A stretch of DNA of 64,000 nt, taken from NCBI RefSeq assembly GCF_003334255.1, contig NZ_QOWU01000008.1; one strand, 5' to 3'. This DNA is from Escherichia coli. Lineage in GTDB: Bacteria > Pseudomonadota > Gammaproteobacteria > Enterobacterales > Enterobacteriaceae. The notes beneath the pieces were generated by a model. It was given only the letters and a program-made list of their open reading frames with translations. It did no database searches and was not told the DNA's origin. Shown piece by piece: positions 44,023-46,075 of this stretch. A program made the translations under genes and the position numbers. Position 1 is the stretch's first letter. The number at the start of each line of letters is the position of its first letter.

Positions 44023-44060
44023 GCTGTATATACTCACAGCATAACTGTATATACACCCAG
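44023..44060 (+). promoter_or_regulatory. Two tandem LexA operators (SOS boxes) in the lexA promoter
   Basis: CTGTATATACTCACAG (44023-44038) and CTGTATATACACCCAG (44045-44060), both matching CTGT-N8-ACAG, just upstream of the lexA ATG. Confidence 0.9.
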
Positions 44061-44068
44061 GGGGCGGA

Positions 44069-44677
44069 ATGAAAGCGTTAACGGCCAGGCAACAAGAGGT
44101 GTTTGATCTCATCCGTGATCACATCAGCCAGACAGGTATGCCGCCGACGCGTGCGGAAATCGCGCAGCGTTTGGGGTTCCGTTCCCCAAACGCGGCTGAA
44201 GAACATCTGAAGGCGCTGGCACGCAAAGGCGTTATTGAAATTGTTTCCGGCGCATCACGCGGGATTCGTCTGTTGCAGGAAGAGGAAGAAGGGTTGCCGC
44301 TGGTAGGTCGTGTGGCTGCCGGTGAACCACTTCTGGCGCAACAGCATATTGAAGGTCATTATCAGGTCGATCCTTCCTTATTCAAGCCGAATGCTGATTT
44401 CCTGCTGCGCGTCAGCGGGATGTCGATGAAAGATATCGGCATTATGGATGGTGACTTGCTGGCAGTGCATAAAACTCAGGATGTACGTAACGGTCAGGTC
44501 GTTGTCGCACGTATTGATGACGAAGTTACCGTTAAGCGCCTGAAAAAACAGGGCAATAAAGTCGAACTGTTGCCAGAAAATAGCGAGTTTAAACCAATTG
44601 TCGTTGACCTTCGTCAGCAGAGCTTCACCATTGAAGGGCTGGCGGTTGGGGTTATTCGCAACGGCGACTGGCTGTAA
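44069..44677 (+). CDS. lexA: LexA repressor of the SOS regulon
   Basis: 202 aa ORF starting [54 protein letters not shown], recognised as LexA. Confidence 0.95.
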
Positions 44678-44695
44678 CATATCTCTGAGACCGCG

Positions 44696-46075
44696 ATGCC
44701 GCCTGGCGTCGCGGTTTGTTTTTCATCTCTCTTCATCAGGCTTGTCTGCATGGCATTCCTCACTTCATCTGATAAAGCACTCTGGCATCTCGCCTTACCC
44801 ATGATTTTCTCCAATATCACCGTTCCGTTGCTGGGACTGGTCGATACGGCGGTAATTGGTCATCTTGATAGCCCGGTTTATTTGGGCGGCGTGGCGGTTG
44901 GTGCAACGGCGACCAGCTTTCTCTTTATGCTGTTGCTGTTTTTACGCATGAGCACCACCGGGCTGACTGCGCAGGCTTATGGTGCCAAAAATCCTCAGGC
45001 ATTAGCCCGTACGCTGGTGCAACCGTTGCTGTTGGCGTTGGGGGCTGGGGCGTTAATTGCGCTGCTGCGTACGCCGATTATCGATCTGGCGCTGCATATT
45101 GTTGGCGGTAGTGAGGCAGTCCTGGAACAGGCGCGGCGCTTTCTTGAAATCCGCTGGTTAAGCGCACCGGCGTCGCTGGCGAATCTGGTATTACTCGGTT
45201 GGTTACTCGGCGTGCAATATGCCCGTGCGCCAGTAATTTTGTTAGTGGTCGGCAATATCCTCAACATTGTGCTGGATGTCTGGCTGGTGATGGGGCTGCA
45301 TATGAACGTGCAGGGCGCGGCGCTGGCGACGGTTATTGCGGAATATGCAACATTGCTGATTGGTCTGCTAATGGTGCGTAAAATCCTCAAACTACGCGGA
45401 ATTTCCGGCGAAATGCTGAAAACTGCCTGGCGAGGAAACTTCCGTCGCTTGCTGGCGCTTAACCGCGATATCATGCTGCGTTCGCTGTTGTTGCAACTCT
45501 GTTTCGGCGCGATCACCGTACTTGGCGCGCGACTGGGGAGTGACATTATCGCTGTTAACGCGGTTCTGATGACGCTACTCACCTTTACCGCCTATGCGCT
45601 GGATGGTTTTGCCTACGCGGTTGAAGCGCACTCCGGTCAGGCATACGGTGCGCGCGACGGTAGCCAGTTGCTGGATGTCTGGCGGGCAGCGTGCCGCCAG
45701 TCGGGGATCGTAGCGTTACTGTTTTCGGTGGTTTATTTGCTGGCTGGGGAACACATCATTGCGTTACTGACGTCGTTAACCCAGATTCAGCAGCTGGCTG
45801 ACCGCTATCTTATCTGGCAGGTGATTTTGCCGGTGGTTGGCGTCTGGTGTTATCTGCTGGACGGCATGTTTATAGGCGCAACGCGTGCCACCGAAATGCG
45901 TAACAGTATGGCGGTGGCCGCCGCAGGTTTTGCGCTGACGCTCCTTACGCTGCCGTGGCTGGGTAATCATGCTTTGTGGCTGGCATTAACCGTCTTTCTG
46001 GCGTTGCGCGGGCTTTCTCTGGCGGCTATCTGGCGGCGTCACTGGCGCAATGGTACCTGGTTTGCCGCAACGTGA
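44696..46075 (+). CDS. dinF: DNA-damage-inducible MATE-family efflux protein DinF
   Basis: 459 aa polytopic ORF 18 bp after lexA (operon); an internal Met (MAFLTSSDKA) is an alternative start. Confidence 0.85.
   Translation: MPPGVAVCFSSLFIRLVCMAFLTSSDKALWHLALPMIFSNITVPLLGLVDTAVIGHLDSPVYLGGVAVGATATSFLFMLLLFLRMSTTGLTAQAYGAKNPQALARTLVQPLLLALGAGALIALLRTPIIDLALHIVGGSEAVLEQARRFLEIRWLSAPASLANLVLLGWLLGVQYARAPVILLVVGNILNIVLDVWLVMGLHMNVQGAALATVIAEYATLLIGLLMVRKILKLRGISGEMLKTAWRGNFRRLLALNRDIMLRSLLLQLCFGAITVLGARLGSDIIAVNAVLMTLLTFTAYALDGFAYAVEAHSGQAYGARDGSQLLDVWRAACRQSGIVALLFSVVYLLAGEHIIALLTSLTQIQQLADRYLIWQVILPVVGVWCYLLDGMFIGATRATEMRNSMAVAAAGFALTLLTLPWLGNHALWLALTVFLALRGLSLAAIWRRHWRNGTWFAAT

Follow-up and report, generated by a model that had tools for sequence, protein, structure and literature searches.

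Binding of LexA to the operators of its own gene is established in the classical literature. In another SOS transcription unit, recA–recX, the distal gene recX is, as Pages, Koffel-Schwartz and Fuchs reportedly described in 2003, expressed by low-level read-through of the recA terminator. The two units are alike in that an SOS-box promoter drives an abundant first gene and the second is reached only by reading through a hairpin terminator in the short spacer; the genes are of course different and recA has a single SOS box. In RNAP ChIP, recAX and lexA–dinF behave alike. Dar and Sorek 2018 (PMC6061677) reported Rho-dependent 3′ ends that are trimmed back to a protective stem-loop. At lexA, likewise, a stable stem-loop lies ahead of a bicyclomycin-sensitive termination region, and the ends just beyond it are heterogeneous; unlike in those cases, the stem-loop of lexA has a full U-tract and could terminate alone.

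The closest counterpart is the lexA–dinF operon of Escherichia coli K-12 (b4043–b4044). The window, the 64,000-nucleotide stretch of E. coli DNA analysed here, was 100% identical to K-12, with the same sequence, genes and two SOS boxes and the same neighbours plsB, dgkA, yjbJ and zur, and all of 5426 E. coli genomes carried the lexA–dinF locus. Only the annotated dinF start differs between records, giving 459 aa in NC_000913.3 and 441 aa in PGAP. Window coordinates (Table 1) equal genome coordinates minus 4213046. The locus is the textbook lexA–dinF SOS operon and all of the points made below are already known or published; it holds nothing biologically new, and its practical value lies in annotation and reagents. 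We consider it probable (about 75%) that one LexA-controlled promoter serves both genes, and that a leaky lexA terminator together with Rho leaves an attenuated read-through into a 441-aa dinF.

Table 1. Features of the lexA–dinF locus in window coordinates
Feature	Position	Strand	Basis
lexA promoter −35 hexamer TTCCAA (putative)	44006–44011	+	Read from sequence; 17-nt spacer to TATACT
SOS box 1 (LexA operator 1) CTGTATATACTCACAG	44024–44039	+	CTG-N10-CAG core; consensus scan
lexA promoter −10 hexamer TATACT, within SOS box 1	44029–44034	+	Sequence; 6 nt upstream of mapped TSS
lexA TSS	44040	+	SMRT-Cappable-seq TSS 4257086, both data sheets (PMC6131387)
SOS box 2 (LexA operator 2) CTGTATATACACCCAG	44045–44060	+	CTG-N10-CAG core; 5′ UTR +6 to +21
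lexA CDS, 202 aa	44069–44677	+	ORF; TIGR00498 match
lexA terminator: hairpin 44688–44717 and U-tract TTTGTTTTT 44715–44723	44688–44725	+	Terminator scan
18-codon 'N-terminal extension' MPPGVAVCFSSLFIRLVC	44696–44749	+	Annotated in NC_000913.3, absent from PGAP; most likely untranslated
dinF leader: pyrimidine-rich, G-poor, weak SD remnant AGG 44738–44740	44724–44749	+	Sequence
dinF CDS, 441 aa, MATE family transporter, supported start	44750–46075	+	PGAP; NF007690; TetRP; comparative
Rho-dependent termination region, peak in early dinF	44903	+	Adams et al. 2021, Supplementary file 2, 4257949(+)

The lexA promoter, its operators and LexA

The first-pass annotation had described tandem SOS boxes immediately upstream of lexA, and both were recovered. 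Its coordinates for box 2 stood, whereas box 1, given as 44023–44038, proved to lie 1 bp further on, and the spacing of 6 bp became a gap of 5 bp between the 16-bp cores, with 21 bp from start to start. The boxes overlap the −10 hexamer, the TSS and the 5′ UTR of lexA; on the motif evidence, they are placed over the promoter and 5′ UTR as an SOS transcription unit requires. The UV tiling-array study lists SOS box 2 as its motif for lexA,dinF. Among 80 Enterobacterales lexA loci (one per species), box 1 was nearly invariant at −45 from the lexA ATG and box 2 stood at −24 in 73, with at least two boxes, at −45 and −24, in 75; the 21-bp spacing was found in 63 of these 75 two-box loci.

The 16-bp core was used for the scan because both natural boxes are more than three mismatches away from the perfect 20-bp palindrome TACTGTATATATATACAGTA, which had no match in the window with up to 3 mismatches allowed. 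At the same tolerance, the core consensus CTGTATATATATACAG gave 3 matches in 64 kb where 0.10 were expected, a number reached by 0 of 100 shuffled windows; the third match belongs to the SOS box of uvrA/ssb. With at most one mismatch allowed, CTGT-N8-ACAG was not enriched in the window (19 matches against 16.9 expected), and this pattern alone is useless as a chance test. A further CTG-N10-CAG at 43983–43998 (−86 from the ATG) was considered as a third LexA box and is probably a chance occurrence, only Escherichia and a few Enterobacter having it. The putative −35 hexamer, which we placed by anchoring on the mapped TSS, matches the consensus at 3 of 6 positions and is too weak for a consensus promoter scan; a GGTTCCAA-like motif is kept at the −35 position across the compared loci.

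The identity first given to LexA was upheld by its match to the TIGR00498 equivalog over residues 1–199 (289.5 bits; cutoff 110.95), and PDB chains of E. coli LexA matched over the full length at an E value of about 1e-129. The self-cleavage site A84–G85 and the S119/K156 dyad are present in the translation. In the mechanism that we propose, a single sigma-70 promoter (TSS 44040) would start transcription and LexA dimers would repress it via the two operators 21 bp apart, operator 1 masking the −10 hexamer up to the TSS and operator 2 masking +6 to +21. Upon DNA damage, RecA-stimulated self-cleavage of LexA (A84–G85, S119/K156) would free the promoter.

The lexA–dinF junction and the dinF start site

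The distance from the lexA stop codon to the stem of the hairpin is 10 nt here and 9–19 nt in most Enterobacteriaceae. The terminator scan showed a stem of 13 pairs, 8 of them GC, with a 4-nt loop and the U-tract directly after it, and a 91-nt stretch containing the hairpin had a folding energy of −31 kcal/mol (z −2.5). Both SMRT-Cappable-seq sheets (PMC6131387) place the TTS of a b4043-only (lexA-only) transcript within the U-tract, at 4257766 (window 44720). A hairpin with z below −2 was found at the equivalent position in 37 of the 50 dinF-linked loci, its place being kept while its sequence turns over between loci. In the Enterobacter/Leclercia group, compensatory changes were seen at 4 of 10 pairs and 100% of cells were paired, compared with 26–47% in slid controls; the hairpin of Erwiniaceae was weak or ambiguous. 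A hairpin after lexA is also present in most genera without dinF downstream, and we therefore take it to be lexA's own terminator. Term-seq under three conditions (Adams et al.) gave no dominant 3′ end at the hairpin, which may therefore not yield a sharp, abundant 3′ end, and the supplement of the TERMITe paper (PMC12207403) contains no entry for lexA or dinF. An Rfam scan of 43400–46600 (E up to 1) detected no described RNA element at the junction; its single match, a sub-threshold one to Chlorobi-RRM inside dinF (23 bits against 45), is a chance match.

The segment between the hairpin and the dinF ATG is 0.63–0.83 pyrimidine in Enterobacteriaceae, and 40 of 43 loci have GG at −16 to −5 of the dinF start, compared with a fraction of 0.45 among control pieces. 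The dinF leader is a candidate Rho-loading (rut) region.

An in-frame ATG at 44750, reading MAFLTSSDKA, lies within the long ORF of 459 aa (44696–46075), and the dinF start had accordingly been called uncertain in the first-pass annotation. Little of that uncertainty is left, as TetRP, PGAP, NF007690 and the 50-species comparison agree on ATG 44750. Ribosome profiling, which had been suggested as a check, is already published in its tetracycline form (TetRP): values of 0/24.9/10.5 were reported at the ATG at +54 ('new site') and 0/0/0 at the annotated ATG, the dinF signal being low, present in two of three samples and from uninduced cells only. The supplement of the ribosome-signature paper (PMC5576327) has no entry for lexA or dinF. 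NF007690 aligns from residue 19 of the long ORF and leaves the extension outside the model, and tblastn alignments begin at residue 1 of the 441-aa form, where 43 of 50 related loci, as well as the K-12 window, have an aligned ATG or GTG. Across 50 species the extension is not conserved, most genera having an in-frame stop or no start; in several, including other Escherichia, an in-frame stop occurs in the extension without an upstream start, Citrobacter also has stops in it, and a sister Escherichia lineage shows TCA to TAA within it. The extension is hydrophobic (mean KD 1.6), but its absence or interruption outside the K-12-like lineage led us to reject it as either a conserved signal or a TM segment. 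A GAG lies 7–9 nt upstream of ATG 44696, and this ATG sits inside the hairpin stem. An identical junction is shared by 2849 E. coli genomes; the common E. coli variant, CCT to CCA, does not discriminate between extension and hairpin because it is both synonymous in the putative extension and a loop substitution in the hairpin. Most likely, ATG 44696 is part of the terminator stem and the 459-aa annotation is an over-extension.

The placement of dinF 18 bp after lexA thus holds only if dinF is counted from the long ORF's first ATG, and the supported start lies 72 bp after the lexA stop. The argument that the two genes are co-transcribed owing to an 18-bp gap fails with it, as the 72-bp gap holds a canonical hairpin and U-tract. 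For operon calling, a short annotated intergenic distance is no evidence for simple co-transcription. The curated K-12 record NC_000913.3 places the dinF start 54 nt too far upstream, within the stem of the lexA terminator, and judging from the usual design rules of such collections, reagents built on the 459-aa annotation are probably affected. ORF-archive clones, for example ASKA pDinF (used in PMC3327717), would have 18 extra hydrophobic residues, and precise deletions of the dinF ORF would cut away the lexA terminator's U-tract along with the 3′ arm of its stem and could alter the lexA mRNA end. In a dinF deletion, lexA and recA reporter fusions were unchanged (PMC3327717).

Read-through from lexA into dinF

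SOS induction of both genes, as originally proposed, is well founded. UV tiling arrays showed one continuous induced lexA–dinF transcript, RNAP occupancy spans both genes, induction after methylglyoxal was detected by qRT-PCR and the classical lexA::Tn5 insertion has a polar effect on dinF. In SMRT-Cappable-seq, reads that begin at the lexA TSS run past the TTS, showing that transcripts span both genes. A promoter and a terminator mapped between the genes had been named as what would speak against a shared transcript; the terminator is mapped there (TTS 44720, with partial read-through), and a consensus scan, for which lexA's own −35 is also too weak, found no sigma-70-like site on the + strand of 44678–44750. 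We conclude that dinF is probably expressed from the lexA promoter via attenuated read-through rather than by simple co-transcription.

The numbers of SMRT-Cappable-seq reads ending at the TTS, passing it and ending within 50 bp downstream were 10, 20 and 6 in sheet 1, and 22, 10 and 86 in the deeper sheet 2, where read-through had a median length of 1406 nt, roughly enough to reach the end of dinF. The apparent read-through differs accordingly between the sheets (roughly 56% compared with 8%), the assignment of their rows to M9 or rich medium following from file order only. At 4257949(+), Adams et al. 2021 measured a coverage of 322 upstream and 54 downstream without bicyclomycin (BCM), and of 288 and 295 with it (Rho score 6.1, p 5.6e-32), in windows of 800 nt that are too coarse to separate the hairpin from early dinF. 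The 6-fold drop in coverage from lexA to dinF was abolished by bicyclomycin, and in treated cells purely intrinsic termination can therefore have had little part; this counts against a mechanism that is intrinsic alone, though not against the hairpin contributing.

In the mechanism that we favour, most transcripts would end at the GC-rich hairpin and U-tract that follow lexA after 10 nt, or no more than about 50 nt beyond. Some would pass the pyrimidine-rich, weakly ribosome-binding leader into dinF (ATG 44750), and Rho would take out much of this read-through within the first few hundred nt of the gene. dinF would then have no promoter of its own, be SOS-inducible and have a much lower output than lexA. 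This division of labour between hairpin and Rho is one that we infer, and its biological purpose may be to hold a membrane transporter at low dosage.

The simplest account would have dinF start at ATG 44696, 18 bp after lexA, with tight co-transcription, possible translational coupling and no terminator. In its favour, K-12 has an open frame of 459 aa that is annotated in NC_000913.3, the tiling arrays show one continuous induced transcript and Term-seq lacks a dominant 3′ end at the junction. However, ATG 44696 is buried in the 13-bp stem and has a TetRP signal of 0/0/0, the extension is unconserved and broken by stops in Citrobacter and other Escherichia, and the alignment to the NCBIfam DinF model begins at residue 19; in addition, a TTS is mapped at 44720 and coverage drops 6-fold into dinF. 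This account is already largely refuted, and we regard it as extremely improbable. A weaker version keeps 44750 as the main start and adds a 459-aa isoform, for which K-12-type strains would initiate at 44696 once the hairpin had been melted by translation of lexA or by heavy SOS transcription. Such an isoform would fit the open frame in K-12, the junction shared by 2849 E. coli genomes, the synonymous CCT to CCA change, the upstream GAG, the hydrophobic extension and the restriction of TetRP to uninduced cells. Set against it are the absent ribosome-profiling signal at 44696, the lack of conservation past the K-12-like lineage and the equally good explanation of CCT to CCA as a loop substitution, and we find it very improbable.

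The remaining alternatives concern how the lexA transcript ends. Rho might be responsible for essentially all termination, acting on the leader, which is CU-rich and untranslated, and on early dinF. The hairpin would then be a 3′-exonuclease barrier, not a terminator, and trimming up to it would leave a defined and stabilised lexA mRNA end. The complete removal of the coverage drop by bicyclomycin (288 upstream, 295 downstream), the 86 of 118 reads of the deeper sheet that end scattered within 50 bp past the TTS, the lack of a sharp Term-seq peak and the C-rich, G-poor leader all point this way. On the other hand, the stem with its TTTGTTTTT tract is a canonical intrinsic terminator, both sheets call a discrete TTS in the U-tract, and a trimmed, hairpin-protected end should also give a Term-seq peak, of which none is listed; termination by Rho alone and the barrier role, taken jointly, thus appear somewhat unlikely. 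Conversely, a partially efficient intrinsic terminator could by itself set the lexA:dinF ratio, the Rho signal being secondary polarity on a poorly translated dinF. The canonical hairpin and U-tract, the TTS mapped in that tract, the conservation of the hairpin with covariation and its occurrence after lexA in genera without a downstream dinF agree with such a terminator, but no residual drop was left when Rho was inhibited and no dominant Term-seq end was seen, making it decidedly unlikely. We also considered that the hairpin and the pyrimidine-rich leader form a conserved, condition-responsive attenuator setting the LexA:DinF ratio, which we judge unlikely. A ribosome terminating on lexA, with the stop 10 nt before the stem, could hinder folding of the hairpin, poor translation of dinF could let Rho load on the leader, and read-through would vary with growth state; if so, dinF dosage would be regulated after initiation, beyond LexA alone.

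The DinF protein

The description of DinF as a MATE-type transporter was confirmed by its match to NF007690 (906.8 bits; cutoff 409), in which profile positions 1–440 of 441 aligned to residues 19–458 of the long ORF; TIGR00797 (matE) was matched at 345.8 bits (cutoff 147.4). Compared with the DinF-subfamily MATE transporters (NF007690; TIGR00797), E. coli DinF is a full-length equivalog match with many hydrophobic segments. A crude Kyte–Doolittle scan gave 16 overlapping hydrophobic peaks, from which individual helices are not separable, and twelve TMs are stated in PMC3327717. The same paper regards efflux activity of E. coli DinF as still to be demonstrated and gives protection from oxidative stress and bile salts as its phenotypes. 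Among the chains compared by sequence there was no solved structure of E. coli DinF itself; the nearest solved chains were barley HvAACT1 (E 9e-25), followed by those of the PfMATE type (about 1e-6).

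Locus identity and the lexA operators

Over the 2.3 kb around lexA-dinF, identity to E. coli K-12 MG1655 is 100%, and this stretch was found as a single copy in 5426/5426 complete E. coli genomes searched. The annotated gene order is plsB(-), dgkA, lexA, dinF, yjbJ and zur(-). In a profile search, the LexA translation scored 289.5 bits against TIGR00498 (cutoff 110.95); it aligned over its full length with solved chains of E. coli LexA (E ~1e-129), and A84-G85, S119 and K156 were all present. The ORF downstream of lexA matched two models, the DinF equivalog NF007690 at 906.8 bits (cutoff 409) and, for MATE proteins in general, TIGR00797. 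No solved structure of E. coli DinF was found among the solved chains, the nearest by sequence being barley HvAACT1 (E 9e-25). DinF has been reported to protect against bile salt and oxidative stress, with transport activity still to be demonstrated (PMC3327717). The locus is the known lexA-dinF operon, ordinary and explained already, with nothing novel in it; the useful residue of the analysis is a correction of the curated K-12 dinF start.

Features of the lexA-dinF region and related sites (K-12 positions were converted by subtracting 4213046 from the NC_000913.3 coordinate)
Feature	Position	Strand	Remarks
lexA -35		 	TTCCAA, 17 nt upstream of -10
lexA -10	44029-44034		TATACT, inside box 1
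Box 1 (LexA operator)	44024-44039		CTG-N10-CAG core
lexA transcription start	44040		4257086, SMRT-Cappable-seq
Box 2 (LexA operator)	44045-44060		CTG-N10-CAG core
lexA CDS	44069-44677		
lexA terminator hairpin	44688-44717		followed by U-tract
Long dinF ORF	44696-46075		459 aa
Supported dinF	44750-46075		441 aa
uvrA	58003-60825	-	940 aa
uvrA/ssb LexA box	60911-60926		CTGAATGAATATACAG
ssb		+	
IS200C, strain 43905			locus coordinates 2544-3255

The first-pass annotation had placed two tandem SOS boxes, 6 bp apart, upstream of lexA. Both boxes were confirmed; the first had been set 1 bp off, so the gap between the cores is 5 bp rather than 6 (21 bp start to start). Since the -10 hexamer lies inside box 1 and transcription starts at 44040, box 1 covers the -10 up to the start and box 2 spans +6 to +21. 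With one mismatch allowed, the loose pattern CTGT-N8-ACAG was not enriched in the window (19 vs 16.9 expected). Allowing no more than three mismatches to the core consensus CTGTATATATATACAG gave three matches in 64 kb, against 0.10 expected, and 0/100 shuffles reached three. Two of them were boxes 1 and 2; the third, the one remaining strong SOS-box hit in the window, lies between uvrA and ssb and is therefore the known uvrA/ssb box, a LexA site listed in a UV tiling-array study. This site provided an internal positive control for the core pattern, which thus selects only genuine LexA sites in the 64 kb.

We then surveyed 80 Enterobacterales species, retrieved using LexA as the query. At least two boxes lay within 150 nt of the lexA ATG in 75/80 species, positioned at -45 and -24 from the ATG, with 21 bp spacing in 63 loci. 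Box 1 was nearly invariant across these loci and its flanking sequence diverged. A third CTG-N10-CAG (CTGGTTTATTGTGCAG; 43983-43998), just past the lexA -35 and 86 nt 5' of the ATG, was restricted to Escherichia and a few Enterobacter in the 80-species set, and is probably a chance match.

The dinF start codon

RefSeq annotations conflict on dinF, which begins at 44696 (459 aa) in NC_000913.3 and at 44750 (441 aa) according to PGAP. The first-pass annotation had likewise left the start uncertain and proposed ribosome profiling, which is already published. In the tetracycline-inhibited profiling of Nakahigashi et al., dinF is a 'new site' at ATG +54 (MAFLTSSDK...), with signals in three samples of 0, 24.9 and 10.5 at this internal ATG and 0, 0 and 0 at the annotated start. 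Position 1 of the NCBIfam DinF profile (441 positions) aligned with residue 19 of the long ORF, and tblastn alignments with the 441-aa protein started from residue 1 in most lexA-linked loci. Among the 50 dinF-linked loci plus the K-12 window, the codon aligned to the 441-aa start was ATG or GTG in 43; a GG-containing Shine-Dalgarno remnant was present at -16 to -5 of the conserved Met in 40/43, vs 45% of random pieces of the same spacers. Most genera had an in-frame stop 5' of the conserved start without an intervening start codon, at -63 in E. albertii, -27 in a sister Escherichia lineage (TAA where K-12 has TCA) and -24 in Citrobacter. The junction differs from K-12 in 2577 E. coli genomes; all three of those sampled carried T to A in the hairpin loop, which is uninformative on the 18-codon extension (44696-44749) because it is also synonymous there.

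Four independent lines, namely the NCBIfam model, ribosome profiling, comparative data and the Shine-Dalgarno remnant, favour a dinF start at 44750. The curated K-12 record almost certainly places the start 54 nt too far upstream, within the lexA terminator stem. Nearby, 47275-48260 is annotated as separate yjbL (84 aa) and yjbM (246 aa) genes in NC_000913.3, and by PGAP in another MG1655 record as a single frameshifted DUF2713 pseudogene.

The hairpin between lexA and dinF

The 72-bp gap contains a GC-rich 13-bp stem with a 4-nt loop, enclosing the ATG at 44696 and followed by TTTGTTTTT; the 91 nt that include it have a folding energy of -31 kcal/mol. In the survey, dinF directly followed lexA in 50/80 species, including Erwiniaceae, Hafnia, Edwardsiella, Serratia and Rahnella. 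Yersinia, Morganellaceae, Pectobacteriaceae and Budvicia had no dinF after lexA; the linkage has been reported in Enterobacteriaceae and Vibrionaceae (PMC3327717). A strong hairpin was seen in nearly every genus, its sequence varying between genera, with z < -2 relative to shuffled spacers in 37/50 loci (median -3.3). In most Enterobacteriaceae genera it starts 9-19 nt past the lexA stop and ends 23-45 nt short of the dinF ATG, the segment up to the ATG being G-poor and 63-83% pyrimidine. In the alignable Enterobacter/Leclercia group, 4/10 stem pairs showed compensatory double changes and 100% of cells were paired, against 26-47% paired and 0-1 compensatory pairs in slid-register controls. Of the genera lacking dinF downstream, Brenneria and Rouxiella share the hairpin ATCGCCCC...GGGGCGAT with Serratia and Rahnella. 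Positional conservation, z scores, compensatory changes and presence without dinF are comparative evidence that the hairpin is under selection. It is best read as an ancestral terminator belonging to lexA itself, because it also follows lexA in many genera lacking dinF downstream.

In Citrobacter, where the spacers are 121-131 nt long, REP-like palindromes GCCGGATAAGACG...CGTCGCCATCCGGC replace the simple hairpin seen in Escherichia. In the urine isolate E. coli 43905, an IS200C element with an annotated tnpA interrupts the U-tract directly after the stem, at the very nucleotide of the mapped TTS (equivalent to after 44720); lexA and dinF are thereby ~0.7 kb apart, and the PGAP dinF is still 441 aa.

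Termination and read-through into dinF

Co-transcription and SOS induction of dinF had been proposed. The lexA promoter does drive dinF: UV tiling arrays showed a single continuous induced transcript, methylglyoxal raised RNAP occupancy over both genes, and polarity of lexA::Tn5 on a dinF fusion is a classical observation, as quoted in a later paper. A sequence scan found no sigma-70-like site between the genes on the + strand. Rather than through tight coupling, as had been implied, dinF is transcribed from the SOS-inducible lexA promoter by RNAP that reads through a termination zone. The recA-recX operon is the nearest parallel to this logic, since recX expression relies on transcription past the recA terminator.

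SMRT-Cappable-seq mapped a transcript that starts at 4257086 and ends at 4257766, listed as a 'novel TTS', with only b4043 fully covered (PMC6131387). This end corresponds to 44720, midway along the U-tract; such a discrete TTS within a canonical U-tract favours intrinsic termination. With the M9 and rich labels inferred solely from file order, sheet 1 (M9) had 45 reads from the TSS, 10 ending at the TTS, 6 within 50 bp downstream and 20 reading through (median 567.5 nt), and sheet 2 (rich) had 135, 22, 86 and 10 respectively (median 1406 nt, approximately the distance to the dinF end). The ends scattered within 50 nt downstream point instead to Rho, with the untranslated CU-rich leader and a weakly translated dinF as its targets. 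So does the Term-seq of Adams et al. (2021), with no dominant 3' end within 4257700-4257999 under three conditions, and so does their DirectRNA-seq, where bicyclomycin gave full relief: at 4257949 (44903), coverage upstream and downstream was 322 and 54 without the drug and 288 and 295 with it (Rho score 6.1, p 5.6e-32).

The data sets agree on an attenuation of ~2-fold to >10-fold at or just past the hairpin and disagree on its mechanism. We favour a composite in which hairpin and Rho would terminate together, with Rho dominant in rich medium; were termination Rho-driven, the hairpin would be at least a protective 3' structure. Overall, the first-pass observation stands with its 1-bp correction and its interpretation in part.

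Adams et al. also recorded a reproducible 3' end at 44139 (4257185, +), 70 nt into the lexA ORF, in 3/3 growth conditions; its Rho score of 0.73 ('No') and intrinsic-terminator score of ~1.05 leave it explained by neither. Their data further include a Rho-dependent site antisense to the dinF 3' end at 46096 (4259142, -; Rho score 5.8) and abundant 3' ends from Term-seq that lie antisense to dgkA, at 43699/43759 (-).
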